Of a DNA stretch of 64,000 bases, positions 25,870 through 43,570 are shown piece after piece. Source of the stretch: a bacterium (GTDB lineage Bacteria > Ratteibacteria > UBA8468 > B48-G9 > DTJG01); NCBI GenBank assembly GCA_021800535.1, contig JAJYYV010000001.1, forward strand, positions 1,389 to 65,388. The letters are read 5' to 3'. The notes under the pieces are model-generated. The model made no database searches. It saw only the letters and a list, made by a program, of their open reading frames with translations, and was not told the DNA's origin. How positions within the stretch are numbered: the stretch's first letter is position 1; every line of letters begins with the position of its first letter. The position numbers and the translations under genes are program-made.

Positions 25870-25989
25870 TTTTTAATTTCTATAAATTCTCAGACGCATT
25901 TTTTTTTATGAGCCATTCCCAAAATGCCGGGCAAAAGTCCAATCCATAGTGTAAACTACTCGCACTAATAAAAACATTTGCATCAAGAA
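25870..25989 (-). pseudogene. Truncated PIN-like (DUF4411-type) gene fragment of 39 codons
   Basis: The minus-strand reading gives MTYLLDANVFISASSLHYGLDFCPAFWEWLIKKNASENL* . This is near-identical to the N-terminus of the intact PIN gene at 27447-27944 (MAYLLDADVFIRAKNLHYGLDFCPAFWEWLIKENAAGNL). The DNA similarity is visible at 25890-25990 vs 27840-27945. Confidence 0.7.
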
Positions 25990-26041
25990 GATATGTCATT
26001 GGGTATGGACTCCTGAATCCTGGATAAGATGGATAAATGTT

Positions 26042-26662: not shown

Positions 26663-27051
26663 TAATCACGACCATGTTTTCTTATTTTTTCTGCAATGCG
26701 TTTCATTTCTTCTGGTGTAGGTTTCTGTCCACGCAATGTACGGAAAAATAGAGGTAAAGATTTTTTGAGTTCATGATCAGAAAGTATGTCTTTGGGTATA
26801 ATCCCTTGGGTTGTTGCAGCAAGATCAAAAAATTTATACCAGTTATCCGTGCCTTCTTCAAGACATAGTGTAGTAGCATATCGTTCAAGAATTTTATGAT
26901 TTTTGGGTGGAGGTATCGCACCTCGTTCCATCCGGCTAATATTTGCCGGATCAGCAGCAGCTTTTCGACAAAATTCTCGTAAAGTCAAATGTTTTTGCTG
27001 CCGCAAGGATTCAAAAAATCGGCCAAATGTATCTATCTGAATGTTAGCCAT
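26662..27051 (-). CDS. XRE-family helix-turn-helix regulator
   Basis: Start chosen at MANIQ (ATG with GGAGGAG RBS) rather than the longest ORF start at 27093. HTH region LTLREFCRKAAADPANISRMERG. Confidence 0.65.
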   Translation of the reverse strand: MANIQIDTFGRFFESLRQQKHLTLREFCRKAAADPANISRMERGAIPPPKNHKILERYATTLCLEEGTDNWYKFFDLAATTQGIIPKDILSDHELKKSLPLFFRTLRGQKPTPEEMKRIAEKIRKHGRD

Positions 27052-27141
27052 ATCTCCTCCTGGTTTAATATTGTTGTAAAAATTATACAACATAAATACA
27101 TATCAAGTCAATAAAACGTATTGTGTCGAAAATAAATATAC

Positions 27142-27243
27142 ATGAAATTTGTTATAAACCCTATTATAGAGCACATACAAAAGTTCATACTCTGGCACTT
27201 TTGGATAAGAGGCACACTGGTTCAAATTGGTTGCACTTGCGGA
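27142..27243. repeat. 102-bp direct repeat, copy A; ~97% identical to 41835-41936, the 3' flank of tRNA-Ser
   Basis: Aligned by eye: atgaaatttgttataaacc...ttggttgcacttgcgga. About 3 mismatches. The two copies diverge exactly where the tRNA 3' end begins in copy B. Confidence 0.85.
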
Positions 27244-27446
27244 CGCATTCACAACCAATCCGAACCGCAGGAGAAATAGTCACCATAATCCGAATAGAAT
27301 CTACAAGTTTATTGCCGGTATATAGACAGATTGCTCAAAAAGCAACCCAATTACATCTTTTAGGAATGAATGCCTCAGAAATTGCCAGACGCCTTTATGT
27401 TGACCGCAGAACCGTTTGTAAATCCCTTAGAGTTTAATCCTTTCGC

Positions 27447-27944
27447 TTAGGGGCGGGGTCCCAAAATGAATCGTGCCCTTTCATGGCGTAACATTTCAAA
27501 AGGGGTTATACATTTAAGGCCTAATCCAATACAGGCATCAGGAATTTTTATTTTACGTGTAGAAGCAGAAGGAATTTCATGTGTAACAACGGTATGTTGA
27601 CCTGCTTTTGCCTGAGCCACGAGATAATAATCTGCGACTTGAAGAAATGTACTAACAGCAGATGGTTCATAGCGTTGACCATTTGACGCCCATGCACTAA
27701 CAATGGTTAATGCAGGAAATATAGTAGTATCAGGTTTAAGAAAAAAACTAGGACTTAGAGTTTTTGCCCATTTTGATAAATCATCTTCAAGTGCAAAAAT
27801 CTCATCACCAACTTTTTCAATACTATATAAATTTCCAGCTGCATTTTCTTTGATGAGCCATTCCCAAAATGCTGGACAAAAATCCAATCCATAGTGCAAA
27901 TTTTTTGCACGAATAAAAACATCCGCATCAAGGAGATACGCCAT
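27447..27944 (-). CDS. PIN-like nuclease domain protein (DUF4411-like), putative toxin
   Basis: N-terminal acidic PIN motif LLDADVFI. 165 aa. Start overlaps the stop of the upstream HTH-ImmA gene. This family typically pairs with ImmA/IrrE peptidases. Confidence 0.6.
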   Translation of the reverse strand: MAYLLDADVFIRAKNLHYGLDFCPAFWEWLIKENAAGNLYSIEKVGDEIFALEDDLSKWAKTLSPSFFLKPDTTIFPALTIVSAWASNGQRYEPSAVSTFLQVADYYLVAQAKAGQHTVVTHEIPSASTRKIKIPDACIGLGLKCITPFEMLRHERARFILGPRP

Positions 27945-29089
27945 CAGGTATGTACCCCCAAATTATGGCCAAGATGATTAAATGTTTCCATTTTCTTAAT
28001 GCCAAGTAAACGGAATGATTCGGTAAATGACGTTCGTCCTTCCAACGTACTGGCAATTAATGCGCGGGTAAAGCATTTGCTCATTCGTGCGCCCAACGTC
28101 AAATAAAAATCACCACCGGTTCCTTGAGGAATTTCAATTAAGCGTTTTTCTTCACGTTTATAAGCATCCTGAAAATTTGCGTATGTAAGTTTCCCAGTAT
28201 CATAAATGCGACGTAAAATTACAAGGGTGCTAACTTTGAAATATCTTGCCAATCTGTTGACCTCATTTTGCAGGTCTGCTGTTTTTTTGTATTCTTGTTT
28301 CATTAGGTCAAGTGGTACCAATAATTCAGCAGCAACTTGATTACACCAACGTTCTATATATTGATTGGGAACAATAGCGGGTTGAGCATTGGAAACGGCG
28401 GATTGGCCTAACCAGATATGAGCAAGTTCGTGTGCCAATGTAAACATTTGTGCAGATTTGGTATCTGCTCCATTGATAAATATTAATGGAGCAAGATTAT
28501 CTGATATGGCAAAACCACGAAATTCTTCAGGATCCAGGTGCCGGTGGGTATTATTATTAACTACACTATTGCACATTACCAAAATACCAATATTATCTGT
28601 TTGCTCAATAAAATGCCGAAGAGCATCTGTCCATGTTGGTATCTGGTGACGTTCATTTACATCAAAGTTTAGTATGTTCCGAATTTCTGTTGCTGTCAGA
28701 ATAATGTTATCGCGAAGATTGACAGAACCAACAAGGTTCAATGGTTTTTCGCCGTTAAAACGGGCATAATCTTGGTACCATTCTTGACGTTGCTGACAAA
28801 TATATATGGTATCTAACAAATCAGGAGATGGATGACTGAAATCTTCTTTTTCAATCGTGCGAAAATCAGGAATTGGTATTTTTTCAACCGGCGGCTCTTG
28901 AAGAAACAAATAACCTACAGGCGTATGTGTAGTATTGGCAAAAGATTCAATCTGTTTTAGTGTAGGATGCGTTTCGCCTCGTTCCCAAGCCGATAATTTT
29001 GGAAATTTACGTTCCAAATCAGAAATAATATATCCCGCTCGTTCATATGCCCAGCGTATAAGATTTGGATTAATTTCAACCCGATTCAT
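27944..29089 (-). CDS. HTH-ImmA/IrrE fusion: N-terminal XRE-like HTH plus COG2856 metallopeptidase
   Basis: HEXXH in FTLAHELAHIWLGQ. N-terminal ~70 aa are HTH-like (LSAWERGETHPTLKQIESFA). GC visibly higher than flanking genes. Confidence 0.7.
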   Translation of the reverse strand: MNRVEINPNLIRWAYERAGYIISDLERKFPKLSAWERGETHPTLKQIESFANTTHTPVGYLFLQEPPVEKIPIPDFRTIEKEDFSHPSPDLLDTIYICQQRQEWYQDYARFNGEKPLNLVGSVNLRDNIILTATEIRNILNFDVNERHQIPTWTDALRHFIEQTDNIGILVMCNSVVNNNTHRHLDPEEFRGFAISDNLAPLIFINGADTKSAQMFTLAHELAHIWLGQSAVSNAQPAIVPNQYIERWCNQVAAELLVPLDLMKQEYKKTADLQNEVNRLARYFKVSTLVILRRIYDTGKLTYANFQDAYKREEKRLIEIPQGTGGDFYLTLGARMSKCFTRALIASTLEGRTSFTESFRLLGIKKMETFNHLGHNLGVHT

Positions 29090-29165
29090 ACCAATAGTTT
29101 ATCATAAAAACAGAAAAATTTAATTAAATTTGACGGATTTTTGGGTCTGTTCAATTAAGATTACT

Positions 29166-32024
29166 CTATTTATTATGTTCATCGTATATTGACTTTAAAA
29201 ACTTATAATCAGAACTACGCCTAAAGTAAAGATTACAAATGTCATTTGCGTCTTTGATTTGTTCTTCTTTTTTTGTATCGTACAAAAATTTTACAATTGA
29301 AGATATATCTTCTTCTTTATAATCAGGATAATCAGGGGTAGCATGGTATAATATTTCTAAAAATATTTTCCCCACATATTTATAACTTGCTCCTTTGTCT
29401 TTCAATTCGTTAAGATATTCAATAAAAAAAGATGCGGTAAAATGAATATTAACATAAGGGGCTGATAACTGTAACCATTTGGCATTTTCATTGTTTATTT
29501 CTGGTAAAAAAACAGTAAGTTTAGCTAATTCTGACAAGATTTCTTTTTCTTCTTTAGAGAAAGAAGTTTTATTCTTATATTTATTTTTATAAACCCATTC
29601 CCAGAAATCAATAATTCTTTTTTTAAAACTTTCAATTTCCGGTGTCTTTTCTACTTTAGTTTTGTTTTGAATAGATTCTATAAGATAATCCCTTTGCATC
29701 CAGAAAAATCCGATTATACTTTCTATTTGTGCTGGATTCCATTTATCAAGAATTTTTCTGAATAAACCAGTAGTATTATCTATCTTTTCAATTTCACGCA
29801 AATATCCTATGCAAATATGTTGAACAAATCTATCAGCAGAATGTTCTTCATTCAATCCATAATTTAACATATTTTCATAATGCGATTTCATTAGTTCGTA
29901 TAATTCGTCATAAACATTAGCCCTGTATAAATATCCACTCATGAACGCTTTCCATAATTGTCCTTTTTCAGGGGTGATTGTTTCTATTTTCTTTTTTGTC
30001 CATTCTTTATCCATAGTGTAGAAATTTGGTAAATATACTCCAAGCCAGACATAACTTTCTACTATATTGTTAGCCAACAATTTTTCATATTTCTTCTTGA
30101 TATCTATTTCCCAACCAACGGATTGTTTATTTCCAAATTTATCCTCAATTTTTTTAATTCTGAAAGTTAACTTAATCAACGCTTCTGTTATTTTTCCAAA
30201 AGAAGAATTTAATGCATAACTTAAGAAACCGTTTCTAATAGGATGTTCTTTTAATATTTTTTCCTTCTCTGGCAGCATATTATCTAATAGGAAGAATAAA
30301 ATGTTTTGTATAGTATCAAAATGTTCTTCAGGTATTAACCATGCATCATATTCATATCCAGCCACAATAAGTTCACCTATCATATTTATTACCCACAGAT
30401 GATTTGCTTTAAGAAAATCATCTTCAGATTTATATTTGGTATTATCATTCCAGAAATCTTCTGGGTCTATATATTTTCTGATAAATTCCAAGAATTTTTT
30501 CCAATCAAATGTTTTTTTCTTCTTCCATGCATTCAATATTCCCCAAAGAATATCTGAGATATACAGATAGGCTGTTTCAAGGAAAGGTTCTAAATCTTCA
30601 ACAAATTTTTCCGGTTTTTCCTCAGCGGCTCTTTTTAAAATATCAGATAAACCGCCAACAGTTGGCCCTTTCCAAGGGTCCATTGTTCGGAATGTTTTTA
30701 AATATGCTGCCAGTTCTGTATTAGATTTCCCCAAAATATCTTCTATCGTTAATGGAGATGGACCAGGTCCTACATGTACTCCTGATTCTTCAAATCTAAG
30801 GTCTTCTTCTGGATGAGGTTCTCTGGGTACTTTGTTTTCTATAATATATTTAATATTTTCTTTTTCAGTGGGTGGAAATTTACTAAAATGTGAATCATTG
30901 AAAAGACTATTCTCTGTATCTTCTTTAATCATTTCCCAGAAAACATCTTTATAAATGTTCCATTCCATCCCAATTACATATAAAACAAGACGTTGAAATA
31001 ATGGATATGGATATTCTTTACTTAAAAATTTGTCTATTATTTTTTGTGTTGCTTCTTTATTATTTTTCGCTTTAGATAAGAAAATATCTTTTAATATCAG
31101 CGTAAGTGTTTCTTTTGGATTGGAATAAATATGTTTCGAAACATTAAATAGTGATGGGAGCCAAATATATGAATAATCATCTTTATGTTCTGGATATTCT
31201 TGTTCAAATATACCCATTAATTTATTGGCAAGATTATATATGATATTTTCGCTACACTTTTCTCCTATTTTAACGGCATTTTTTTTATTAATAAAAGATT
31301 CTATTAACCAATAAGTATCAATTGCCATTTTGGGTTCCTTTTTTTCAAAATCCAAAAATGCGAGACGAAGTTTTTCCTCATCGGTCATTTCATCTTGAGG
31401 CTTATTAAGAATGTCTGCATATTTTTCTTTCATCTCTTTTTTTTGTTGTTCAGTATATTTAGGAACCCATTTTATCTCGGTGATTATATCTATAATTTTT
31501 TCTGCTTTTTGAATATCCTGCGAAGTGGAATTATCAGAAAGAAATTTGGGCAAAAGATTTGTTGCTATTCTTACTCCTTGAGATGTGACGCCAAATTTGG
31601 AATTAAGCCAGATAGGAATTAGGTCCAAAATTTCATCACTAATTTTTTCATTTGGCAAATTTACCAGAATTTTTATGAAATATGTCCATGTGCGATAATT
31701 ATCAATATATTGCTTATTGTTATCTTTATAGCTTGATACTTTTTTTATAATATTCAGTAATTCATCAATATATTTTTCGTTTTCTGGAATATTAACTTGC
31801 TGAGAAATTTTTTCAAGATAAGGCAAAACATTCCATTGAGGGATTTTGTAGTAACCTTTTTCTTTTGCTTCTATAAAATTTGGGGCTTTATCTGGAGAAA
31901 AATAGTCTCGTTGTTTTAGGGAATCAAACCATTTTATATCAGAGATATTCTTGAAGAAGTAATCTTGATATATAGGATCTTCTATTAGTTTTAATACAGA
32001 CTGTTCTTTTGGAGTTAAGTTCAT
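29166..32024 (-). CDS. Uncharacterised 952-aa alpha-helical protein, translationally coupled to the upstream SIR2 gene
   Basis: Long ORF with no Walker, nuclease or other catalytic motif seen. K/E/Y/W-rich with a repetitive helical character. 4-nt overlap with the SIR2 gene at 32021-32024. Confidence 0.55.
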   Translation of the reverse strand: MNLTPKEQSVLKLIEDPIYQDYFFKNISDIKWFDSLKQRDYFSPDKAPNFIEAKEKGYYKIPQWNVLPYLEKISQQVNIPENEKYIDELLNIIKKVSSYKDNNKQYIDNYRTWTYFIKILVNLPNEKISDEILDLIPIWLNSKFGVTSQGVRIATNLLPKFLSDNSTSQDIQKAEKIIDIITEIKWVPKYTEQQKKEMKEKYADILNKPQDEMTDEEKLRLAFLDFEKKEPKMAIDTYWLIESFINKKNAVKIGEKCSENIIYNLANKLMGIFEQEYPEHKDDYSYIWLPSLFNVSKHIYSNPKETLTLILKDIFLSKAKNNKEATQKIIDKFLSKEYPYPLFQRLVLYVIGMEWNIYKDVFWEMIKEDTENSLFNDSHFSKFPPTEKENIKYIIENKVPREPHPEEDLRFEESGVHVGPGPSPLTIEDILGKSNTELAAYLKTFRTMDPWKGPTVGGLSDILKRAAEEKPEKFVEDLEPFLETAYLYISDILWGILNAWKKKKTFDWKKFLEFIRKYIDPEDFWNDNTKYKSEDDFLKANHLWVINMIGELIVAGYEYDAWLIPEEHFDTIQNILFFLLDNMLPEKEKILKEHPIRNGFLSYALNSSFGKITEALIKLTFRIKKIEDKFGNKQSVGWEIDIKKKYEKLLANNIVESYVWLGVYLPNFYTMDKEWTKKKIETITPEKGQLWKAFMSGYLYRANVYDELYELMKSHYENMLNYGLNEEHSADRFVQHICIGYLREIEKIDNTTGLFRKILDKWNPAQIESIIGFFWMQRDYLIESIQNKTKVEKTPEIESFKKRIIDFWEWVYKNKYKNKTSFSKEEKEILSELAKLTVFLPEINNENAKWLQLSAPYVNIHFTASFFIEYLNELKDKGASYKYVGKIFLEILYHATPDYPDYKEEDISSIVKFLYDTKKEEQIKDANDICNLYFRRSSDYKFLKSIYDEHNK

Positions 32025-33013
32025 TCGAGCACCTCGTCAATTAATCGTATTTTTTCTAGAAATTCCTTAGGCTGTGAAACAGGACCTATCTGCTTTGACC
32101 AATTTTCAATTACTTTAGAAAGATGTTCATAACCATCATTGTCTATAGGATAAGGAATCAATTTGACTCCAAAGCTTAAATAATATTTTTCAAGTCGGCG
32201 AAGTATATCAAATTCTTCCTGGAATATTGGATACAGCATAAAATGCTTTAATTCTTTTTCAACAATATGTGATTTACTAATCATAAACTCTAAGATTTCA
32301 TATTCCTCTAAACCGTAGCCAATAAATAATACCGTATGATTTACGAAAATTTCCTCTAACAACACTGAGGGTTCTGAACCTTTTTCATAATGGCTCATAT
32401 AATCAACAATTGTCATTATTCTGTCTTGATTTTGTATTCTTCCATGAAGATAAAGAACATTACCCTTATCTAAATTTACTGTTAGCATTTCTTTTTTTGA
32501 AGAAAAGATATTTTGTTTTTCCTTTCTAATCACATCTTCAGATATCGAGTTAGCGATGAGTTTCGGTGGTTCCAGATGAGTTTTTCTAGCTTCCTTGGCC
32601 AGATAATCATCATAATTTGTGGTTACGTAGATGACATTAAAATTGTACAAATGTTCATATATTCTATATTCTTCAATCAATTTATCTTTGCCCTTTAAGA
32701 AAGAATTTAAATCTGCAGGAACAATATTTTTTCCCTCTTCATAAATCTTCATACAGATAGATAACAATTTTCTTGCATCTAAAGATTCAAGATGTTTGTA
32801 TTCATGAAAGCTGATGGATTTCTTTTTACGTAAGTCTTTTAAATATAAAGTGGCCAACTTATACCAAGAAGGACAACCGATAATTCGAGAAACGCCTGCT
32901 CCAATAAATAAAACTAATTTCCCTCTTTTCGCAGCATCAAAAATTTCTGATGGTATATCAGGAATATTTTTTATTCTAATTTCATTAGATTTCCTAGGAG
33001 AATGCGTTTTCAT
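32021..33013 (-). CDS. SIR2-like protein, SIR2_2/DUF4020-type (defence-associated sirtuin)
   Basis: VLFIGAGVSRIIGCPSW (GAGxS), VTTNYDDYL (TTNYD) and LHGR motifs are typical of bacterial defence SIR2 domains such as ThsA and DSR. Confidence 0.7.
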   Translation of the reverse strand: MKTHSPRKSNEIRIKNIPDIPSEIFDAAKRGKLVLFIGAGVSRIIGCPSWYKLATLYLKDLRKKKSISFHEYKHLESLDARKLLSICMKIYEEGKNIVPADLNSFLKGKDKLIEEYRIYEHLYNFNVIYVTTNYDDYLAKEARKTHLEPPKLIANSISEDVIRKEKQNIFSSKKEMLTVNLDKGNVLYLHGRIQNQDRIMTIVDYMSHYEKGSEPSVLLEEIFVNHTVLFIGYGLEEYEILEFMISKSHIVEKELKHFMLYPIFQEEFDILRRLEKYYLSFGVKLIPYPIDNDGYEHLSKVIENWSKQIGPVSQPKEFLEKIRLIDEVLE

Positions 33014-33037
33014 TTTTGCACATCCTTATTTTTTTTA

Positions 33038-33223
33038 TCAATTTTTGACTAATTCCTTACTCATTTCACTCCAAAGAGGGCATTCATATATTTTTGAAAC
33101 TCCAGCTCCAAGAAAAAGAATAATATTATCTTCTTTAGCCGCCAGATGAAGTTCTTTAAAATCGTCTTTCTGAAATTGCAATAAACGTTCAATTTTATCT
33201 ATAGAAACATTTCCATTCTCCAT
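33038..33223 (-). pseudogene. N-terminal remnant (~61 aa) of a third SIR2-like gene
   Basis: MENGNVSIDKIERLLQ...NIILFLGAGVSKIYECPLWSEMSKELVKN* carries the GAGVS nucleotide-binding loop but stops before the TTNYD core. It lies between the MTase stop and the intact SIR2 start. Confidence 0.55.
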
Positions 33224-33224
33224 A

Positions 33225-36200
33225 TTATATACTCCTGGCTTTTTGAAGACGATTTTTAACAAGTTCACATACAGACCAATAAACTTCATTTCGTTCTTCT
33301 TGGGTCAATCCTAATTCATCAAATACAATGCTATCAAGTTCTTTCCTGTCCGGAAGAGGATTGGGCTCCTGCCCTCGAATTGGCTTTGACGGATCAAAGC
33401 CAAGTTCGGTGAAGATGGTAGGAATTTTTTTCTCTATAAAAGCTTGAAAAATCTCTTTATTAAATTTTAACAACTTTACATCAGGTAGAGGCATTTCACT
33501 ATAGTGATAAACTTTCATTTGTAATGCGCCTAGTCCTTCTGGAGCACGACACAAAAGTTCTTTCCAAAGCCCAATAATCATATTATTTAGAAGTAAATTT
33601 AAATTTTCTTCATTAATTCCTTTTGAATAGCACCAATACAATGCTGCATCTATATATGCCTGAGCAAAATTATAAAAACAATATTTCCTTTCGTTTTCAA
33701 ACATTGGTAAAATATTTTTACTTATTCCCCATATTCCTAAATCCCACCATTTAGGTCTTCCTCTACAGGTTGGTCTTTTATTAAATCCCTGTTTCTCACC
33801 CCATTCTATATATTCAAGCGCTTTTGTTTCTTTTAATTCTGCTTTTGATTTATGGCACATAAAAACAAGATAATTCAAATCTTCAAGACGCACAATTATG
33901 GTTTTTAATTCTCTGGGGCTTTTTATTACAGGTTTTAAAAATCTTACTTCAATTTCACCTTCCCAACCCCCTCCATTTTTCACTCTTATCAAAGCATCGG
34001 GATTTTTCTCTGAAATCTCCACCACTTCTTTAACAGTCATTCCAACTGGTTTTAAATAAAAAAATTCATTTGCTCCAGTTTTAATTCCAAATTTTACTTC
34101 TGCAATATCTCCTAAGCGGACAAGTTTTCCTTTACCTTTTTCCAGAATTTTGAAATAAATATCTGGAGCCCTTAGATATTTTCCACCCCATTTGTTTCCT
34201 GTATATTCACCCAACTGTAATTCATTTCCTTTTTTCAAGCCATACAGAGATTCCTTTTCTTCAGGGTATTTTAGGGCTTCTTCCAATAATTCCTTTTGTT
34301 TCTTTGGATATACCCGAAAATCAGAAGTTGCAAGAACTTTATCGGAATACTCAATTTTTAGAAGATTTTCAGCGTTTATAACTTCTTCAAAAGGTCTTTT
34401 GAACATAACGAATTTGACGATATTATCCAGAAATGAAAAATTTTTGCCTGTTTTATCTGGAGAACCAAATAAAGAAATAATAGTATTTACATCTGCATGT
34501 TCAAAACTCCGTTTTGCCTGATTATCATAAATGGCAATAACCGGTACATGTTTAAGAAGGAATTCCTGTAGTTCCTTACCATATCCAACATCAAGCCAGG
34601 AATTTGATGTTATAAAACAAAAAGTTCCTTTTCCGTTTAAAAGAGAAAGTCCGTGAAAGTAAAAATATACATAATAGTCACTTCTCTTATCTATATTTTG
34701 GATAAAAGGAAATTGAGCCTGTACGGATTTCAATAGTTTTTCCTTGTAATTCTGTTTGCTTTCATTATTAATTTCATTCTTCAGTTTGTTCGGAGGTGCT
34801 ATTTTTTCCTGTCGGACATAGGGAGGGTTGCCTATGATTATGTCAAAACCCCCTTTATCACCAAAAATTTCTACAAAATCAATGTCCCATATAAAAGGTT
34901 TCTGTTCTTTTAGTTTTTTTTCTGTTTCCTTCAGTTGAGATATTTCTGCATCAATCTCTTGTTTTTTTCTTTCAGAAATTTCCTGCAATTCATTTTCATC
35001 AAATAATTCCTTATCAGTTTTTTCTATTTCAAACAGTCTCAAGTCGTTTGCGTTAGATTTTTCTAAGTCCAGAGTTTGTTTTCTTTTTGTAAGGATTGTA
35101 ATCTGTTCATCTATTATTTCATAGAAAATTCGTAATTCCTCATGAATGAGAGATTCGGCTGTCTTAAATTTTGCTGTTGGCTCGTTGTTACAATATTTTT
35201 CCTTTTCCCTTTTAAGTTCAGAGAGTTTTCTTTTCATCCCGGGGGAAATTGTTTTTTCTCTTAAGTTTAAAGTAAGACCGCCAATTTCCTGCACCAAGGA
35301 ATCCCCAATACGAAGTTTTAGATTAAGATTAGGAAGTAGTGGTGTAATTTTAAGTTCGGCAAGTGTAAGATCGGATTCAATCATAAGCGATAACCACAAC
35401 CGTAATTCTGCTGAGTGCACAGCCCATGGCATTATGTCAACTCCATATAGAGAATTGCCTATAATGCGTTTTTTCAATTGATAATCTGTCATTTCCCGTT
35501 TTAAATGTTTATAATCAAATTTATAAAGTTCCACAAGAATATTTAGTATTCCAACCAAAAATGCGCCACTTCCACAGGCAGGGTCTAATATTGACAGATT
35601 ATCAAGAGATTCTTCCAATGTTTCATAGTCTTGAGATTGGAACTGTTTTTCAATTTTCATTTTGTCTTCATCAAATAGGAGATGATAGAGTAAATCTTTG
35701 GAGAATTTAGTTGTTTTTCCAAGATATTCAATAAGACTCCTTCTGCACATAAAATCTACTTCAATCTTAGGAGTATAAAAAATTCCCAGGTCTTGTCGTT
35801 CATAAATTTCTTCTGCCACGTTTGCAAGGGATTCATAGACGTATCCGAGCATTTGCGGGTCAATCGCCACCTCTACGTCAAGAGGCAGGTCTTCCCGAAT
35901 CGTAAAGTTATATTTTTCAAAAAACGCCAGAATGTTTTCAAGAAAAGCATCGTCGAGATTCACCTGCAACTCATCAAGGGGAGTTATTTTGAAAAGCCCA
36001 CCATTAAGAAAAGGCGCAAGGGAAAGTGCATCTTTTACATCCTGTGGTAAATATGCCGGATGACTAAACTGGTTATTGAAGGCTTCTAAAAATAATACTT
36101 CCAGCCATTTTTCATAAAACAAGTTTTCAGGAATTCCTTTTTTTCTTTCTTGTTTGTAGCGAGTCCAGAACCACTTCATAAATTTAGGGGAATGGCGAAA

Positions 36201-36869
36201 CCACATTTTCCTATCCACAAAATAAATGAACATAATCCGGTTAAGCAATTGTTGGGAAAATTCATGTGCTTTCTTAATGTCAATGTTCTGTGTTGTTAAG
36301 TTTTCCCTGAGGGCGAAGAAAATATTTTTATAATCTTCAAAAAACAAGCGGCTGACTTTTTCTATGCTAAGAGCTTCTTTAAAGATTTGATAAAGATGAA
36401 CAGGGTCATCGGTTTTTTGCTCGTTATACATCTGACATATAGTGAATCTATCCGTATAGTAAGCGTTTTCTCTATCAAAATGAAGTCTGACAAGTTTTTG
36501 CTTCCAAACCCCGACATCTTCTCTTATTTTCTCAATCAAAACAAAGACAAAATTCCGATAATCATCTGTAAAGATGAAAAGTGGATATTGAATTTCTTTT
36601 TCAAGAAAAAGAGAGATATTCTTAATTGTGGAAGGAGAAAGGGTTTCTAATTCTATTAGGGAAATCTGGAATCTTTTGGAGTAATTGCAAATCGTATATA
36701 TTTCTTTTATCGTATTCTTTTCTTTTTCCGGCAGGGTCCATGCTTCTTTCCCTTTATATTTTGAATCCAATATCTGATAGCCCAGTGTTTCAAATAGTTC
36801 ATAGACTTTTTCAGGGCTATTTATACCTAACAAATTAGTTTCTATATACTGGTTTATGTTCGTTTTCAT
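33225..36869 (-). CDS. 1214-aa gamma-class N6-adenine DNA methyltransferase, PglX/DrmMI/Eco57I-like (COG1002)
   Basis: Motif I ILDPACGSGAFLVGILN comes before motif IV IIIGNPPYVRQEKI. There is an N-terminal extension of ~430 aa and a C-terminal putative target-recognition region of ~450 aa. Confidence 0.8.
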   Translation of the reverse strand: MKTNINQYIETNLLGINSPEKVYELFETLGYQILDSKYKGKEAWTLPEKEKNTIKEIYTICNYSKRFQISLIELETLSPSTIKNISLFLEKEIQYPLFIFTDDYRNFVFVLIEKIREDVGVWKQKLVRLHFDRENAYYTDRFTICQMYNEQKTDDPVHLYQIFKEALSIEKVSRLFFEDYKNIFFALRENLTTQNIDIKKAHEFSQQLLNRIMFIYFVDRKMWFRHSPKFMKWFWTRYKQERKKGIPENLFYEKWLEVLFLEAFNNQFSHPAYLPQDVKDALSLAPFLNGGLFKITPLDELQVNLDDAFLENILAFFEKYNFTIREDLPLDVEVAIDPQMLGYVYESLANVAEEIYERQDLGIFYTPKIEVDFMCRRSLIEYLGKTTKFSKDLLYHLLFDEDKMKIEKQFQSQDYETLEESLDNLSILDPACGSGAFLVGILNILVELYKFDYKHLKREMTDYQLKKRIIGNSLYGVDIMPWAVHSAELRLWLSLMIESDLTLAELKITPLLPNLNLKLRIGDSLVQEIGGLTLNLREKTISPGMKRKLSELKREKEKYCNNEPTAKFKTAESLIHEELRIFYEIIDEQITILTKRKQTLDLEKSNANDLRLFEIEKTDKELFDENELQEISERKKQEIDAEISQLKETEKKLKEQKPFIWDIDFVEIFGDKGGFDIIIGNPPYVRQEKIAPPNKLKNEINNESKQNYKEKLLKSVQAQFPFIQNIDKRSDYYVYFYFHGLSLLNGKGTFCFITSNSWLDVGYGKELQEFLLKHVPVIAIYDNQAKRSFEHADVNTIISLFGSPDKTGKNFSFLDNIVKFVMFKRPFEEVINAENLLKIEYSDKVLATSDFRVYPKKQKELLEEALKYPEEKESLYGLKKGNELQLGEYTGNKWGGKYLRAPDIYFKILEKGKGKLVRLGDIAEVKFGIKTGANEFFYLKPVGMTVKEVVEISEKNPDALIRVKNGGGWEGEIEVRFLKPVIKSPRELKTIIVRLEDLNYLVFMCHKSKAELKETKALEYIEWGEKQGFNKRPTCRGRPKWWDLGIWGISKNILPMFENERKYCFYNFAQAYIDAALYWCYSKGINEENLNLLLNNMIIGLWKELLCRAPEGLGALQMKVYHYSEMPLPDVKLLKFNKEIFQAFIEKKIPTIFTELGFDPSKPIRGQEPNPLPDRKELDSIVFDELGLTQEERNEVYWSVCELVKNRLQKARSI

Positions 36870-36890
36870 TCTAAATCCTTCTGTAATCTT

Positions 36891-39800
36891 TCAGGAAATA
36901 AAATCTACACTGATAAGTGTCAATTTTTTCTCATCAAATTCTATCTGCTCAATTTGTTCTGTAACAGGTTTTTGTTTAAGGAAACTCATTATTTCCGTAA
37001 TAAAAACCTGCCAGTTCTTTGTATTTTTATAGACTCTCCATATTCTTCGGATTTCCTGCATTCTTTTTTTTGTCAAAGCAACATTGTGTAGACGTTCAAC
37101 TATATCGGTAATGCTATTTTTCAACGGGTCGTTCTGTTCCAAATAATTTTCCCGGATATAATCAAGTTCGTCTCTCATTTCTGCCAGTGTTTTTTCCATT
37201 CTACCGTGAGCCGTTCGTATCTGTGTTGCGACCAGGTTTGCAGAAAAGAATTTTTGAATTTCTTTTTTTACCTCTTCATGTATTTGAAATACATCAATGC
37301 CATCGGGAATTATCCTCGGTTCGTTTGGTTTACAACTGATATAATTCAAAATTTCAGTTTTGTTGGTTATGATTTTTTTCTGCATAATATCATATAAGTA
37401 CCATAAATGATAATCTTCATCATATTTGTAGTAAAAGAAAATCCCTTTCAAATCTCTTACTAATCCGCTTTGAATACCATGCGGTAATTCTTCACAGAAT
37501 TCCTTTAGTTTGTCTAATCCAAAATCTTTTAGAGGCTGCCAGAAATTTTCGCCACCGCCGAATTGTTCTTCTTCAAGATTTTGTAATACTTTTTCTTTAG
37601 TTTGTTCATCCCTTCTTAGGTTTCGTATGATGCCAAAAACTTTAGGATTGATAATTTCCCCAAGAACAGAGGCGTCCAGCCCAACAGTTTCATTGATAAG
37701 GTTAATTTTTTTCTCCAGTATTCTTACCAATTCAAGAAGGCTTTCCAGTTCTTTTTCCGGATAAAAATTGTAAATATTTATTTCTTCAAACGAAGAACCA
37801 ATTCTGTCTATTCTTCCGGCTCGTTGAATCATTCTGACAGGATTCCAGTGCAGGTCATAATTTATGCAAATTCCTGCTTTTTGAAGATTCTGACCTTCGG
37901 ACAAGATATCTGTGGAAAGAAGAACATCTATGTCAGATTCCAGAAAGTCATTGATTATTTCTTTTCGTTTTAACATCGGGAAACTGCCGGTAACACATTC
38001 TATGCGTTTGCCGAAATCTTTCTGAAATTGTTCATCATTCTTATCGTTCAATGCATTATACAGGTAATCTATTGTATCGGCATAAAAAGAGAATAACAGA
38101 ATTTTTCCTTTGTTCTTTAATTTTATAAGAGTATTTTTGAGTTCAACCAGTTTTGCATCTTTTGAAATGTCAATAGGATTTACAAGACAAAAAAGTTCCT
38201 CAAAAATGGAAATATCTTTTTTAATATCATTCATAAAAGCGGTGCCATTATATTCACTGATATTAATGGATTCAAGATATTTTCCGATTGTTTCAAAAAT
38301 ATAGGAATTGTCATCCAAATCGCCTTCAAGATAAGAGATATATTTGTCGTAAAATTTCTTTTTAAGAACTTTTCCTTGTTTGAAAAATTCTTCAAATTTT
38401 TTCAGAAATTTTATCTGACTTTGAATGCTTTTTCTGAAAGCCTCAACACTGCTTTCAAGACGTTTCAACAGAATGGTCTGAAGTATCCCACCTAAAGCTT
38501 TCATCCTACCCATGGCAAGAACATCTTTTTCCCCGGCAGTTTTGTATTCTTCAAGACGGTAATATGCCAATGTCAATTCTTTTTCAACTTTATCAGCAAT
38601 CTTGTGATATAAACCTTGATATGTTTCATCAAGGCTGTAATTGATTTCGTTCAGTTTCCGGTATGGAAATTTTATCGAAATCCAAATACCGTTAATATCT
38701 TTATATTTGGCATCAGGATAATTGGCCTTAATATACTGTCTGGTTCTTCGTATTGCAATAGACTGCAGGATATCGGATAGTTGAGCAATATCTCCTTTAT
38801 CCGCTTTTTTGAACTGGTTCTCAAGATTAAAAATTCCTTCTTTTGCGAAAATCCGTTTGTCGTTTCTTGCAATAAGCATCAACTGAAAATACAAATCCCA
38901 ATGAGTATTGTTCATCGGGGTTGCGGTTAAAAGGAGAATTTTTGGAGCAGTTTTTCCGCTTGCTTTTTCTATCAGAGTGAAAAGATTTTCATAGCGATTT
39001 GAAAATGGGTTTCGGAAATTGTGGGATTCATCTATAACAAATAATGCTACATCCTCTAATTTAAATCCAATTTCTTTTTCCATGAAGTCGAAATCTATGT
39101 TTTCAGAACCAAGTTCCTCTTGATGCAAGATGTTTTCTGAAACCCCTATATCCTTCAGAGCAGGTCTCCAAAGAGTTTCATCTACGGAAGCAGGACATAT
39201 GACTACAAATCTTCTTCTCCTATAAAACCCGAAATCCTCTATGATTTTCTTAGCAATCCAGGTTTTTCCCAACCCTACGGAATCCGCCACCAGAACTCCG
39301 TTATAAGTTTTTAGTCTTGAATAGATACGTTTAACCGCGTCTTCCTGGAAATTTGCGAGGTCAACTTCTGTGGAAGGCATTTCTTCGGGTGTTTCATAGT
39401 CAAAAAGAATGTCGTCTTTCTGCAATTCATAAAGGGATTTTATAAAAATATGATATGGAAGATACTCTTTTGTTCCAAATTTTGATGCATCAAGAATTGT
39501 AATGAGTTCTTGTTTAAAATCAGTCGCCTCAGTCCATAGTTTTTCAAACCATTCTTCTTTTATGTATCTGCTATGTGCTTCATCAAGTACTGCATTAAGT
39601 TCTGTATTAGAGGTGAATCCTGCAAATGTAAAATTGCTTGACCCAACAATGGCGAGTTTTTCAAAAATATATGCTTTCCCGTGGAGAAAACTTTTTTTGT
39701 AAAGTTTTACTTCAACGGATGACTGTTTAAGAAAAGAGATAAGTTTTATAACGGTATCTTTTATATTGTGATGAAAATCTTCATCTTCTATATCTTTTCT

Positions 39801-40049
39801 TAATTTCTGTTTATATTGCAACTCAGGTTCAAATAAATCTGGTTGTAAAGCACATTCATCCGTATAAATTCCCAGAAGTAGTCGGAAATGTTCAGTTTTC
39901 AGAAGAGATTCTTTAACAAGACTGAAACCAGCAACGTTAAAATAGGCTGTAGCAACTGATAAAGTTTTCTGTTCATTAATGATTTTGTTTAACTCATCAA
40001 AAAGTTTCAGTTTTTCATTATCAATAACCAGATTTTCAGGTCGATACAT
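36891..40049 (-). CDS. PLD-family nuclease domain fused to an SNF2-family helicase (DrmC+DrmD-like fusion)
   Basis: N-terminal single HKD motif HGKAYIFEKLAIVGSSNFT. SNF2 motifs: Walker A VADSVGLGKTW, DEAH-box VIDESHNFRN, motif III LLLTATPMNN, C-terminal HELICc SEGQNLQ and QRAGRIDRIGS. Confidence 0.75.
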   Translation of the reverse strand: MYRPENLVIDNEKLKLFDELNKIINEQKTLSVATAYFNVAGFSLVKESLLKTEHFRLLLGIYTDECALQPDLFEPELQYKQKLRKDIEDEDFHHNIKDTVIKLISFLKQSSVEVKLYKKSFLHGKAYIFEKLAIVGSSNFTFAGFTSNTELNAVLDEAHSRYIKEEWFEKLWTEATDFKQELITILDASKFGTKEYLPYHIFIKSLYELQKDDILFDYETPEEMPSTEVDLANFQEDAVKRIYSRLKTYNGVLVADSVGLGKTWIAKKIIEDFGFYRRRRFVVICPASVDETLWRPALKDIGVSENILHQEELGSENIDFDFMEKEIGFKLEDVALFVIDESHNFRNPFSNRYENLFTLIEKASGKTAPKILLLTATPMNNTHWDLYFQLMLIARNDKRIFAKEGIFNLENQFKKADKGDIAQLSDILQSIAIRRTRQYIKANYPDAKYKDINGIWISIKFPYRKLNEINYSLDETYQGLYHKIADKVEKELTLAYYRLEEYKTAGEKDVLAMGRMKALGGILQTILLKRLESSVEAFRKSIQSQIKFLKKFEEFFKQGKVLKKKFYDKYISYLEGDLDDNSYIFETIGKYLESINISEYNGTAFMNDIKKDISIFEELFCLVNPIDISKDAKLVELKNTLIKLKNKGKILLFSFYADTIDYLYNALNDKNDEQFQKDFGKRIECVTGSFPMLKRKEIINDFLESDIDVLLSTDILSEGQNLQKAGICINYDLHWNPVRMIQRAGRIDRIGSSFEEINIYNFYPEKELESLLELVRILEKKINLINETVGLDASVLGEIINPKVFGIIRNLRRDEQTKEKVLQNLEEEQFGGGENFWQPLKDFGLDKLKEFCEELPHGIQSGLVRDLKGIFFYYKYDEDYHLWYLYDIMQKKIITNKTEILNYISCKPNEPRIIPDGIDVFQIHEEVKKEIQKFFSANLVATQIRTAHGRMEKTLAEMRDELDYIRENYLEQNDPLKNSITDIVERLHNVALTKKRMQEIRRIWRVYKNTKNWQVFITEIMSFLKQKPVTEQIEQIEFDEKKLTLISVDFIS

Positions 40050-40082
40050 TTTGTTGAAATCTCCTTTAACAAAATATTATTA

Positions 40083-41192
40083 TTATTTTATGTCAAGAAA
40101 TTTTACAATGGAATCTTCATAATCAGTAACATTATTGGTAAAAGATTTATCTATACAAAGAAAATTTTTTTTGTAATAGGAAAACAACGTTTTGTATATG
40201 TTTGTTGCTCGGGGATCTATTATTGCAACTTTTAGTTGATTCCTCAATCGTAAAGCACTCTTTAAAAATGTTATGGTAATATAATCTCTGAAAGAATATC
40301 CTATAAAAATGATATATTGAGTATTATAAAAGCATTGTTGAAGATAAGAATATGCAGTAATAAATGGGTCAAAAATAATTTCTTTAGTATTATTGGGATA
40401 CAAAATAACAGGTTTTATCCTATGGTCGGTTGGAAAATTTGTGGCGATAGGAGAATAAACTATGCTTCCTTGATCATTATACCAAAAAATTGAACCATGT
40501 AATTTAAAAAAACATATTTTTAAAATTTTTCCTGCAGATTTTAATTCATCAAACGATGAATAGGTCCATTGCATTCTTCTATATTTATTTTTGTATTCAA
40601 AACCATCTGTTAATTCGATTCCTTCTTCTATTTCGCAGAATTTTTCAATGGAACGATCATAATTGGTTGTAAAAATACTGATAATTTTTTTCTTTTCTGC
40701 AATAAGTTTTTTTTTAATGATATCAAAAAATGGTTTATATAAATTGTTCACTTTTTGTTCATCTACAGAGTAATAGGTTGTAAATATTTCTGAATATATT
40801 TTCCAGCGTAATGATAAACATTTATTACACAATAATTCATATTGAATTCCAAAATTAGATTCTGACGGTAATTGAGTTTCCGGTAAATTTGATAATAATG
40901 CACTGAGAGTGTTGCTCGGAGTTTTATCGAATAAATTTTTGAAGTAATTTCGTGGAGAAGGTCCTTTAAAATAATCTTTTTTACATATTTCATCTATTTC
41001 ATCTAATATAGTCTCTAAATCTTTTCCTTTCGTTTTGATAATAGTGTTGATTATTTCTTTCTCTTCCTGGTCCAGAAAAGTTTTATTAAGCAATATATCA
41101 ACAAATCCTTTCATTAAAGGTTTATCCAAAAAAGCAGATGCTCCAGCTCCTAAAAAAATCACTATTGGGGCGTTAATAATTTGTTTATTCAT
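40083..41192 (-). CDS. SIR2-like protein, SIR2_2/DUF4020-type
   Basis: VIFLGAGASAFL, IFTTNYDRSIE and KLHGSIFW motifs. Confidence 0.7.
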   Translation of the reverse strand: MNKQIINAPIVIFLGAGASAFLDKPLMKGFVDILLNKTFLDQEEKEIINTIIKTKGKDLETILDEIDEICKKDYFKGPSPRNYFKNLFDKTPSNTLSALLSNLPETQLPSESNFGIQYELLCNKCLSLRWKIYSEIFTTYYSVDEQKVNNLYKPFFDIIKKKLIAEKKKIISIFTTNYDRSIEKFCEIEEGIELTDGFEYKNKYRRMQWTYSSFDELKSAGKILKICFFKLHGSIFWYNDQGSIVYSPIATNFPTDHRIKPVILYPNNTKEIIFDPFITAYSYLQQCFYNTQYIIFIGYSFRDYITITFLKSALRLRNQLKVAIIDPRATNIYKTLFSYYKKNFLCIDKSFTNNVTDYEDSIVKFLDIK

Positions 41193-41201
41193 TTTCTCTT
41201 T

Positions 41202-41405
41202 TTATTCATCAATGAAATGACTGGCAGTTTTTTTTAAGACACCTGCTATTTTTATGAGTGTTTCCAGTGAAGGGATTACTTTGCCTGTTTCATAAAGTGA
41301 TAAGCTCTTCTGGTTAGTGTGAATTTTTTTTGCGAGTTCAGATTGCGTAAGGTCAAGTTCAACACGGGCTACTTTTATTTTTTTTCCCAGTTTTTTGGCA
41401 TCCAT
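41202..41405 (-). CDS. XRE-family HTH regulator (67 aa) heading the SIR2 / PLD-SNF2 / MTase array
   Basis: LDLTQSELAKKIHTNQKSLSLYETGKVIPSLETLIKIA is a canonical XRE HTH. 10-bp gap to the SIR2 gene. Confidence 0.65.
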   Translation of the reverse strand: MDAKKLGKKIKVARVELDLTQSELAKKIHTNQKSLSLYETGKVIPSLETLIKIAGVLKKTASHFIDE

Positions 41406-41539
41406 TTATACTCCTTAGAATTTATTAATAAAAAATATTTAGCAATATTGCTTCTATGGTATAAATATACCTTAAAGAGAATAAAATAACACCTATAAAG
41501 ATAAATATATAGCACTTTAGGAATAAAGTCAAAGAAAAA

Positions 41540-41840
41540 ATGAATGTCTTATTTGAAGAACAAATTGAAAAAAGAATAGAACAGGAACAAGATATGAAAC
41601 AATATTTAATTTATACGGATAATCCTGCGGTACAAAATTTTTTGGACACTGTGGCAAAAATTATTGCACAGGAATTTATAAAAATAGCAAAAGGAAATTC
41701 TTTTCCTTCACCTTTCAGGGAATGGATAAATCACCGTTTAGAGCGGTTACATGAGACTTTGAATAAAAATACTACCATGGCAGCGTCAGCTCTTAAAGAA
41801 TTGTTAGGAAATATAGAACTTGAATCCGTAACAGATGAAA
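41540..41840 (+). CDS. Hypothetical protein; 3' end uncertain because the longest ORF reads through the direct repeat and into the tRNA
   Basis: The ORF is 41540-42004 in the track, but its last ~55 codons are encoded by the 102-bp repeat and the tRNA gene. Only the first ~100 codons look like independent coding sequence. Confidence 0.3.
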
Positions 41841-41936
41841 TTTGTTATAAACCTTATTATAGAGCGCATACAAAAGTTCAGACTCTGGCACTTTTGGATA
41901 AGAGGCACACTGGTTCAAATTGGTTGCACTTGCGGA
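41835..41936. repeat. 102-bp direct repeat, copy B (partner of 27142-27243); abuts and overlaps the tRNA-Ser 3' end by 4 nt
   Basis: See copy A. Ends ...ttgcacttgcgga, where cgga (41933-41936) is the tRNA 3' terminus. Confidence 0.85.
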
Positions 41937-42015
41937 GGGTGAGGGATTTGAACCCCCATGTCCAAAAAGGACGGCGGATTTCAAGTCCGCTGACTTACCG
42001 TTAGCCTAACCCTCC
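41933..42015 (-). tRNA. tRNA-Ser (anticodon UGA), type II with long variable arm
   Basis: The minus strand reads GGAGGGT-TA-GGCTAACGGTAAGTC-A-GCGGA-CTTGAAA-TCCGC-CGTCCTTTTTGGACAT-GGGGG-TTCAAAT-CCCTC-ACCCTCC-G. This gives a 7-bp acceptor stem, anticodon loop CTTGAAA (anticodon TGA), a variable-arm hairpin GTCC/GGAC, T-loop TTCAAAT, and discriminator G. CCA is not encoded. Confidence 0.85.
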
Positions 42016-42067
42016 ATTTATTTTCTGTTAATTTTTTTTAATTATAACATTTTTTTTAATAGATTTG
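41978..42067. repeat. Perfect 90-bp direct repeat, copy 1: tRNA-Ser 5' half (nt 1 to ~37) plus 52 bp of upstream flank
   Basis: 100% identical to 51590-51679 by manual alignment, including both T8 runs. Confidence 0.9.
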
Positions 42068-42128
42068 TTGTCTTAATTGGATTTTTTCACTTGAGAATTC
42101 CCTGTTGGTTTGCCACAGTGAGATTCAT

Positions 42129-42494
42129 TTATGATAAATACTTCAGAATTCTATTTCTATCTTCGTTTTCTTTATCACCTTTGTAATAAATCTCAATCAA
42201 TTCGATTTTATCTTCACTTTCGTAATATGAATAAATTATTCTTATTCCTGAACCAGCGCCCTTTCCTTTTAAGGATTTACATGCAAATTTTTTTACCTTG
42301 TAAATCTTTGGGGTTTTAACGCCAAAACCCGGAACCGGAAAAACTCCTCTATTATCAATTTTTAGTTTGTGGTACAAATTCAATTCATTCTTGATAAAAA
42401 CATTTAAATCATCTTCAATTGTTCGGAATTTTTTTTTGATTTTTTTAATGTCATTTTCAAACTCCGGTAGCCGACAAATTTCTTTAAATAGCAC
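42129..42494 (-). CDS. RelE/ParE-superfamily toxin-like protein
   Basis: 121 aa. C-terminal GIRIIYSYYESEDKIELIEIYYKGDKEN resembles the RelE/ParE YRIIY...HRKDIY core. Overlaps by 11 nt the stop of the upstream antitoxin-like gene. Confidence 0.5.
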   Translation of the reverse strand: MLFKEICRLPEFENDIKKIKKKFRTIEDDLNVFIKNELNLYHKLKIDNRGVFPVPGFGVKTPKIYKVKKFACKSLKGKGAGSGIRIIYSYYESEDKIELIEIYYKGDKENEDRNRILKYLS

Positions 42495-43531: not shown

Positions 43532-43570
43532 AATCTCCATGTCCAAAAAGGACGGAGGATTTCAAGTTCT
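43532..43570. repeat. Degenerate fragment of tRNA-Ser (variable arm plus anticodon stem-loop), same orientation as the intact gene
   Basis: ccatgtccaaaaaggacggAggatttcaagtTc differs from 41958-41990 by 2 mismatches over 33 nt. Flanking sequence is unrelated. Confidence 0.7.

Follow-up and report, generated by a model that had tools for sequence, protein, structure and literature searches.

A putative defence island beside a tRNA-Ser gene is bounded by the 3' ends of a large serine recombinase gene

The window analysed here, a 64-kb stretch of contig JAJYYV010000001.1 (assembly GCA_021800535.1), carries next to a tRNA-Ser(UGA) gene a 14.7-kb gene array bracketed by two direct repeats of 102 nt, which the initial annotation had taken for an island inserted or accreted at a tRNA hotspot. 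We find that the repeat is the 3' coding end of a plus-strand large serine recombinase (LSR) gene and that it includes the left half of an attP site. The array, hereafter island A (27244–41936), is very probably a decayed member of a group of LSR-moved integrative elements of the Omnitrophota whose LSR gene has attP within its 3' end. This reading is documented here by the coding nature of the repeat, its homology, the anatomy of its junctions and the pattern seen across the family. Insertion or accretion at a tRNA hotspot is upheld by the anatomy of the LSR::tRNA-Ser junction, by an older remnant next to the island and by tandem relatives.

The direct repeats are the coding end of a split recombinase gene

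The two repeat copies, referred to as copies A and B, differ at three positions (96–97% identity) and share a longest identical run of 55 nt. The 102-nt unit is present exactly twice in the window, where no match is expected from shuffled sequence, which confirms the two near-identical repeats first described as bounding the array. It was also correctly noted that the repeat ends just inside the 3' terminus of the tRNA gene: the identity of the two copies extends 4–5 nt into the tRNA-Ser 3' end (according to the ARAGORN or Rfam position of the gene), and copy A diverges there. The features on which the argument rests are the following.

27142–27243, plus strand: repeat copy A, the last 34 LSR codons on the P side, 5'-truncated at 27142 (P half-site, 27219–27233; central GA, 27242–27243)
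27219–27266, plus strand: intact attP-type palindrome of 48 bp, GGTTCAAATTGGTTG-CACTTGCG-GA-CGCATTCA-CAACCAATCCGAACC, encoding GSNW...QPIRT
27244–27437, plus strand: C-terminal LSR tail (P' side) of 64 aa plus stop, contiguous with copy A and containing a helix-turn-helix (HTH) motif ('LLGMNASEIARRLYVDRRTVCKSL'), recognized by homology, with weak HTH_23/HTH_29 matches
41540–41936, plus strand: fusion open reading frame (ORF) made of a small backbone ORF (~41540–41690) and LSR codons ~455–560 (~41690–41936), recognized by homology to LSRs and to the related locus L186
41835–41936, plus strand: repeat copy B, the same 34 LSR codons joined to the tRNA gene as an attR-type junction (P half-site, 41912–41926; GA, 41935–41936)
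41932–42015 (ARAGORN) or 41933–42015 (Rfam, 57 bits), minus strand: tRNA-Ser(UGA), the integration target

Both copies are translated in frame as 'EICYKPYYRAHTKV(H/Q)TLALLDKRHTGSNWLHLR', and the three differences between them amount, in the LSR frame, to two synonymous changes and one H/Q exchange. The plus-strand frame that passes through copy A runs for 64 further codons ('...GSNWLHLRTHSQPIRTAGE...LLGMNASEIARRLYVDRRTVCKSLRV' and a stop), which encode the HTH, and the frame of the fusion ORF continues beyond copy B into the antisense strand of the tRNA gene, as far as 42004 ('...GSNWLHLRRVRDLNP...'). When 41540–41834, the repeat and 27244–27437 are joined, which is the product expected from recombination between the two copies, one uninterrupted ORF of 196 aa is obtained.

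A database search with this 196-aa ORF returned the C-terminal regions of LSRs, some of which are annotated as Recombinase, Zn-ribbon or Resolvase proteins, and the repeat itself is 40–60% identical, at the amino-acid level, to the LSRs of many genomes. These homologues exist in two forms: intact proteins ('..SNWLHWRTRSQPIRT..HTH') and tRNA-fused proteins ('..SNWLHWRRGRDSNPR'), in which RRGRDSNPR, encoded by the antisense strand of the tRNA T-arm, comes after the junction position. Searches of Pfam and PHROGs with the rejoined ORF gave only sub-threshold HTH matches. In the predicted structure of the LSR C-terminal region, the mean predicted local distance difference test score (pLDDT) is 52 and the HTH alone is confident; a homologous tail is predicted to be helical at pLDDT 78–87.

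The first ~50 codons of the ORF that starts at 41540 match a 54-aa small ORF located in L186 between the LSR gene and the gene of a 67-aa HTH regulator (HTH67). A single internal deletion thus fused this small ORF to the 3' end of the LSR gene, removing the catalytic, recombinase and zinc-ribbon domains (~455 codons). The 64-kb window contains no piece of an LSR other than codons ~455–560 and the tail. The window copy, which lacks the Resolvase, Recombinase and zinc-ribbon set, is therefore a remnant and not a functional member of the LSR elements, and island A cannot mobilise itself since ~455 LSR codons are lost. The earlier statement that the island has no integrase or recombinase gene holds as far as an intact gene is concerned, but a remnant of one, with its catalytic domains deleted, is split over both ends of the island (41690–41936 and 27244–27437).

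The attP site lies inside the recombinase ORF

The end of copy A, together with the next 23 nt, forms the 48-bp quasi-palindrome at 27219–27266, with GA as the central crossover dinucleotide, a size within the 40–50 bp of attP sites. The consensus drawn from 13 intact sites at other loci, GGTtCGAATTGGTtgCAcTGGCG-GA-CgCGgtTGCAACCAATtCGAACC, has the same design, and the protein motifs GSNW and QPIRT are nothing else than its two half-sites read as codons. The ORF is unbroken across attP both in copy A and in the homologues that span the site, and the family further comprises 59 bodies fused to a tRNA or to a transfer-messenger RNA (tmRNA) and 72 junctions with a detached tail. In the window, copies A and B part immediately after the central GA.

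We considered and rejected the possibility that the 102 nt are conserved as DNA or as an RNA (a tRNA trailer or a terminator, for instance): when the members of the family are compared, synonymous sites are free to vary in the 22 upstream codons, and they are invariant only in the GSNW codons, which constitute the half-site.

In serine integrases, the outer (ZD) motif of attB lies 5 bp nearer to the centre than in attP (Rutherford et al., PMC3783163). The same inward shift is observed at the tRNA half of the site, which is the half examined: the T-arm sequence ATTTGAACC starts 10 nt from GA, as against 15 nt for ATCCGAACC in P'. Because its last nucleotides come from the side of the element, the tRNA remains intact.

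The two repeats are not a simple attL/attR pair. Copy B belongs to an attR-type (P-B') site, at 41912–41960, whereas copy A is a 5'-truncated LSR end followed by an intact attP, so that the distal end of the island is a P-P' site and not the hybrid B-P'.

Related recombinases are widespread in Omnitrophota

A profile built from the intact forms matched 1231 proteins at E ≤ 0.001, which fall into three classes: recombinase bodies of ~565–600 aa whose match stops at the junction or shortly ahead of it, small proteins made of the tail only and forms that span the junction. The Resolvase, Recombinase and Zn_ribbon_recom domains were found in P0033 and P0165, and all three are likewise carried by the LSRs of L025 and L186; the nearest solved structure of the catalytic domain is that of the TP901-1 integrase.

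Scanning one genome per species yielded 78 loci, nearly all labelled Candidatus Omnitrophota, the group in which GyrA comparison also places the host of the window. About 30 full-length LSRs were recovered from these loci in a single alignment. The 3' end of the LSR gene overlaps an opposite-strand tRNA-Ser gene, of any isoacceptor, in 49 of the 78 loci, and a tmRNA gene in 10. L025 provides a clean example of an integrated element: the tail is at one end, the cargo lies on the opposite strand, and HTH67 and an LSR::tRNA-Ser(GCU) fusion are at the other end. Its tail is joined to an unrelated flank ('...TTTTTCGGA' followed directly by 'CGCGTC...'), both hybrid att sites are present and there is no long repeat, which indicates that simple LSR integration leaves none.

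Metagenome contigs were scanned for tails, and more than 469 loci were found in one collection. Among the roughly 90 tails of the 80 loci that were kept, 72 are of the attL type, with diverse flanks and a shared core (TGGCGGA, followed across the junction by CGCGG), and 15 tails are contiguous with an LSR 3' end. The detached tails sit at the far ends of related elements. The single-strand arrangement of island A recurs in 28 related loci, where nearly all genes of the cargo that precedes the LSR gene on its upstream side are on the strand opposite to it, and the cargo of related elements matches models of Hhe, Mokosh, MADS, PDC-S05/S37 and restriction-modification (R-M) systems. No relative of the family was found among viral contigs, and the elements are for this reason not recognizable phages.

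Three minor features of the family were observed. The loci in which the LSR gene is fused to the tmRNA gene (ssrA) form a subgroup (L042, L051, L061, L068–L072, L075 and L103) with the core TGGTGGA instead of TGGCGGA, and most of them have a tRNA-Leu(CAG) gene 1–2 kb further on. Directly after the LSR tail, a 67-aa ORF is present in L020 (5630–5833), L022 (10527–10730) and L025 (622–825); the three versions are 62–70% identical, the ORF is absent from the window, and its product is a candidate accessory or directionality factor. Finally, about 14 of the 78 loci have only a ~40-aa remnant of the LSR 3' end, equivalent to the 102-nt repeat, beside tRNA-Ser (e.g. L088, L090, L092, L093, L097, L099–L101 and L104); this count is in part an ascertainment effect of the search motif, but dead occupied sites are still common.

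A probable older, related element adjoins island A

The DNA outside copy A holds what is left of another element.

25880–27141, minus strand: older remnant, delineated with Pfam, comprising a DUF4411 stub of 39 codons (25880–25999), an ImmA/M78 gene of 206 aa (26042–26662) and an HTH gene of 143 aa (26662–27093)

The translation of the stub ('MTYLLDANVFISASSLHYGLDFCPAFWEWLIKKNASENL' and a stop) was matched against the DUF4411 protein of island A, and a 175-nt repeat connects the older remnant to the ImmA/DUF4411 junction of island A with 78% DNA identity. In island A, this ImmA/DUF4411 module is the neighbour of the LSR tail. The older remnant also holds a sigma-70-like promoter for its genes. 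We take the outer repeat to be what remains of the LSR gene of an older, closely related and now decayed element, whose final LSR codons survived beside the tRNA gene; an origin of this kind means accretion. The older stub, taken with copy A (25880–27243), directly adjoins island A, as in the accreted tandems that involve cis-mobilizable elements (CIMEs), and the same layout was found in L186, L022 and L027.

L186 (GCA_034680565.1, JAXOUH010055739.1, 1–11326) shows the tandem layout in its best intact form. There, a truncated LSR gene on the inner side, with an intact attP and a tail, is followed by a DUF6602 gene, the genes of a type I R-M system and of a PDDEXK protein, HTH67, the 54-aa ORF and a full-length LSR gene that runs into tRNA-Ser(UGA). 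The 3' parts of its two LSR genes are 77% identical (90–96% in the last ~110 nt), and their longest identical run, 42 nt, lies near the att site. Because they are only 77% identical, the two copies come from two different elements.

A model for the formation of island A

We infer a free form of the element and an order of events, with entry either by homologous recombination or through the recombinase. In its free form, the element would have a single long gene, in which the sequences for the catalytic, recombinase and zinc-ribbon domains would be followed by a coiled coil, the conserved FKPYYxAHTKIQTLALLD..GSNW block, attP and the 65-aa HTH tail. Crossover at the central GA between attP and the 3' end of tRNA-Ser, acting as attB, would rebuild the end of the tRNA gene from element DNA and separate the two parts of the LSR gene: the body would run on into the tRNA on one side, and the tail would be stranded on the other. 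As attP lies within the recombinase gene, integration would thus swap the C-terminus of the LSR. In the window, a newer element would have entered between the older remnant and the tRNA gene. The attP of the inner junction would thereby have become intact again, and two LSR 3' ends would have remained as direct repeats. The later internal deletion of ~455 LSR codons would have immobilised island A.

Several observations weigh against this model. Neither a circular junction, nor an excision product, nor an empty site was found for island A: an exact search of the Joint Genome Institute (JGI) metagenome contigs with a 33-mer from the repeat gave no match, no deletion or circle variant was found, and a close relative, L185 (86% GyrA identity), is uninformative as to the empty site because synteny stops right at gyrB. 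The attL junction that would be expected, with native flank and P', is absent from the window. Since the LSR remnant of the window has no catalytic domain, what is said of activity comes from the relatives alone. Furthermore, no contig carries a full-length LSR gene contiguous with the tail, the longest spanning forms beginning at the zinc ribbon or running into contig ends. The last point concerns the mode of entry: without a directionality factor, canonical LSRs pair only attP with attB, and not attP with attR (PMC3783163).

As regards entry, it is quite possible, if short of probable, that a circular copy was inserted by RecA-type homologous recombination (Campbell type) between its LSR 3' end and a resident remnant. 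The 102 nt at 97% identity, with their 55-nt identical run, offer enough homology, the product would be exactly the one seen, and short resident LSR 3' remnants beside tRNA-Ser are common (the ~14 of 78 loci mentioned above). On the other hand, the copies of L186, at 77% identity and with no identical run longer than 42 nt, would be a poor substrate for homologous recombination, and so would several metagenome loci that keep only a ~25-nt half-site at the inner junction.

A somewhat less favoured but still plausible route is that the LSR of the incoming element used the occupied site, made of the old P half-site and the tRNA, as the partner of its attP, in an accretion similar to that of the tandems formed by tyrosine-recombinase integrative and conjugative elements (ICEs) and CIMEs. 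The identity of the two copies stops exactly at the central GA, some inner junctions retain little beyond the half-site, and the copies of L186 are only 77% identical; a three-step accretion model has also been described (PMC5704250). In addition, the lack of conservation among native left half-sites suggests that recognition rests mainly on the tRNA side. This route is the one that the pairing rule of canonical LSRs speaks against.

Alternatively, a single element could have been the source of both copies, through a head-to-tail dimer or a tandem duplication followed by one deletion that took away most of the first copy, from neighbouring DNA as far as 27142. Such a scenario requires that one deletion only, and it accounts for the high identity of the copies: the median identity of LSR pairs in the family is 79%, and values of at least 96%, as in the window (96–97%), are reached in just 0.3% of the pairs. 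We nevertheless regard it as unlikely. The two synonymous and one conservative changes resemble the divergence of two working genes, the DNA outside copy A is a decayed related module (ImmA and the DUF4411 stub, 78% identical) at the place where the cargo of an older element would be, and L186 has the same layout with copies that are 77% identical.

According to the classical picture of a tRNA island, a tyrosine integrase would have been lost and the repeats would be attL/attR blocks derived from the native 3' flank of the tRNA gene, as first annotated. Direct repeats that abut a tRNA 3' end and the lack of an intact integrase gene fit this picture, which we nonetheless judge very improbable. 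The repeat consists of in-frame LSR codons rather than of native flank, with 40–60% identity to LSRs, and the native flanks at the 72 attL-type junctions are diverse and unrelated to it. Only 4–5 nt of the tRNA are repeated, and there is for this reason no displaced tRNA 3' fragment at the distal end (as in islands of the Islander type), the remainder of the repeat being LSR coding sequence. Moreover, copy A contains an intact attP palindrome instead of a hybrid site, and the scan of 29 window ORFs in the surroundings of the tRNA gene detected no Phage_integrase-type match or other tyrosine-integrase domain.

Lastly, apart from the metagenomic origin of the sequence, nothing speaks for the 102-nt unit being a dispersed repetitive extragenic palindrome (REP) or miniature inverted-repeat transposable element (MITE), or for a misassembly, and this can be practically dismissed given that there are just two copies per 64 kb, both in-frame LSR sequence, that the tRNA was the sole Rfam match in the window, with none on the repeat, and that the same junctions recur in several independent long contigs. 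Indeed, the same junction genes are found in independent assemblies (ENA, 93 kb; JGI, 197 kb; and one 326-kb contig), and short-read contigs stop precisely where a k=31 graph would be expected to break at the 102-nt repeat, whose identical core measures 55 nt. Because several independent long contigs repeat the junction genes and the short-read breaks are those expected for a repeat, the layout of the island is not an assembly artefact. The short-read contigs of the strain showed no alternative junction at the repeats.

Relation to known integration systems

The enzyme class and the att-site logic are those of the large serine integrases. Like the integrases of phiC31, Bxb1, A118/LI, TP901-1 and SPbeta (SprA), the family has the Resolvase, Recombinase and Zn ribbon set, and it shares with them the ~48-bp quasi-palindromic attP, the central dinucleotide and the attB motif shifted inward by 5 bp. 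Unlike these enzymes, the Omnitrophota LSRs have attP within the ORF, exchange their last 65 aa for a few antisense-tRNA codons, target the 3' ends of tRNA-Ser and tmRNA genes, possess a C-terminal extension of ~190 aa and are found in Omnitrophota hosts.

An attP inside a coding gene is known from the mycobacteriophages BPs and Brujita, in which integration at a tRNA gene truncates the product; there, the gene that is cut encodes the repressor, and the integrase is a tyrosine recombinase. In phage Mx8 (IntP/IntX), attP is in the 3' part of the integrase gene, and Int acquires a new 3' end when the phage integrates into a tRNA gene, but is not inactivated by this change (PMC6070905); Mx8 and SSV have been named together as having integrases that extend across attP (PMC4383910). 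Mx8 Int and the LSR family thus share the attP-in-gene design, yet Mx8 Int is a tyrosine recombinase with no sequence relation to the LSRs. Self-disrupting integrases were considered exclusively archaeal in a 2021 review (PMC8371274). The elements SSV1, pTN3 and pT26-2 also have the site inside the integrase gene, int(N) and int(C) flanks beside a tRNA gene, and trapped or decayed copies (PMC8371274). The SSV-type enzymes are tyrosine recombinases whose catalytic part is separated and inactivated, whereas the cut in the LSR gene removes only the C-terminal tail and keeps the catalytic and DNA-binding domains in one ORF. As the domains found here are those of serine recombinases, the likeness to the self-splitting integrases is one of design only.

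As for the tandem, ICESt1/ICESt3 and the streptococcal integrative and mobilizable elements (IMEs) likewise have an old element that decays, a new one that enters at the tRNA-proximal att site and an immobile remnant in tandem (PMC5704250). The CIME accretion model involves tyrosine recombinases and shared core sites, whereas the repeats of island A are the 3' ends of recombinase genes. Defence islands at tRNA hotspots have a similar anti-phage cargo; for island A, the carrier and the chemistry of its insertion can be named.

The literature searched credits tRNA targeting to tyrosine integrases, and self-splitting to archaea and phage Mx8. No serine-recombinase equivalent of the attP-in-gene design was found in it, with the caveat that its coverage is incomplete and that large att-site catalogues fell outside the search. 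An attP inside a serine-recombinase ORF, with the ensuing swap of the C-terminus, and the use of tRNA-Ser and tmRNA genes as LSR targets therefore appear to be new. We put forward only tentatively, as a rather doubtful generalization, that these proteins make up an undescribed bacterial LSR family that has attP in its own gene, targets tRNA-Ser and tmRNA 3' ends via the T-arm as the outer half-site motif, switches its activity or directionality by losing the HTH tail upon integration, as an inherent control, and stacks defence islands at occupied sites.

These observations explain a defence island that seemingly has no integrase: the integrase is present, split and decayed, and annotation pipelines would miss it. 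They point to a large family, with 1231 profile matches and with tail loci that number more than 469 in a single metagenome collection, and to the build-up of defence islands at a tRNA gene in a little-studied, uncultured phylum. If the tail swap does control direction, it would represent a new mode of serine-integrase regulation, and enzymes that recognize the conserved tRNA T-arm might serve as integration tools that need no landing pad.

Cargo and backbone of island A

Nine cargo ORFs lie between the repeats, all on the minus strand, and their domains are those first named.

27447–27944, minus strand: DUF4411 (PIN-like) protein, by domain search
27944–29089, minus strand: HTH-ImmA/M78 protein (RmrA-like), by domain search
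29166–32024, minus strand: Dsr1 part 2, 952-aa ORF (PADLOC PDLC04166)
32021–33013, minus strand: Dsr1 part 1, SIR2 ORF of 330 aa (PADLOC PDLC04166)
33038–33289, minus strand: stray N-terminal Dsr1 fragment (Dsr1 profile positions 16–51)
33225–36869, minus strand: type IIG-like methyltransferase (MTase), 1214 aa, by domain search
36891–40049, minus strand: HKD/PLD-SNF2 helicase, 1052 aa, by domain search
40083–41192, minus strand: SIR2 protein, 369 aa, by domain search
41202–41405, minus strand: HTH_3 backbone regulator HTH67, 67 aa, by Pfam, 67% identical to HTH67 of L025 and also present in L186

The initial description, in which every gene was on the minus strand, is accurate for these nine ORFs but overlooked the two plus-strand coding pieces at the ends (27244–27437 and 41540–41936). 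Similarly, the domains listed were recovered, but the 330-aa SIR2 protein and the 952-aa protein, counted as two, are one split Dsr1 according to PADLOC: the two ORFs match PDLC04166 at E = 5e-66 and 4e-122 and cover the profile end to end. They overlap by ATGA, with the stray fragment just upstream. The split is seen in other assemblies too and may be a natural two-gene variant.

The HTH67 gene is a conserved neighbour of the LSR gene in related elements, as is the small ORF, and island A thus retains the backbone of the family. From 33225 to 41405, the HTH, SIR2, HKD/PLD-SNF2 and IIG-like MTase genes form one tight, operon-like cluster that corresponds to no single named PADLOC system, its top matches being C3a139 'HKD+Snf2' (4e-50), DrmD and DrmMI. 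With matches to Dsr1, HKD+Snf2 C3a139, a IIG-type MTase, SIR2 and an RmrA-like ImmA protein, the cargo of island A is predicted to consist of anti-phage defence genes.

A second island on the 5' side of the tRNA gene

Besides the 102-nt and 175-nt repeats, the region contains a 90-nt repeat, 100% identical, of the tRNA 5' half and its promoter, and a tRNA fragment at 43530–43567. The 90-nt repeats bound a separate island on the other side of the same tRNA-Ser gene.

42068–51589 (to 51679 with the outer repeat), no strand assigned: second island, between the 90-nt repeats 41978–42067 and 51590–51679

Each 90-nt repeat consists of an extended -10 promoter (TGTTATAAT) and tRNA nt 1–38. The cargo comprises an HTH-Panacea gene with a 121-aa ORF, DUF488, an MjaI-type R-M pair and an SDH protease, among others. 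We rejected the idea that this island is the same kind of element as island A: it contains neither a recombinase gene nor an LSR remnant, and no ORF spans the repeat when the ends are joined as a circle. Instead of the usual 3' half, this element appears to bring in the 5' half of the tRNA together with the promoter. The tRNA-Ser fragment within it (43530–43567) corresponds to nt 31–68 and is 92% identical to the intact gene. This fragment has the 9-nt ACTTGAAAT of the anticodon loop in common with the end of the 90-nt repeat, which suggests an older insertion event in the anticodon loop.

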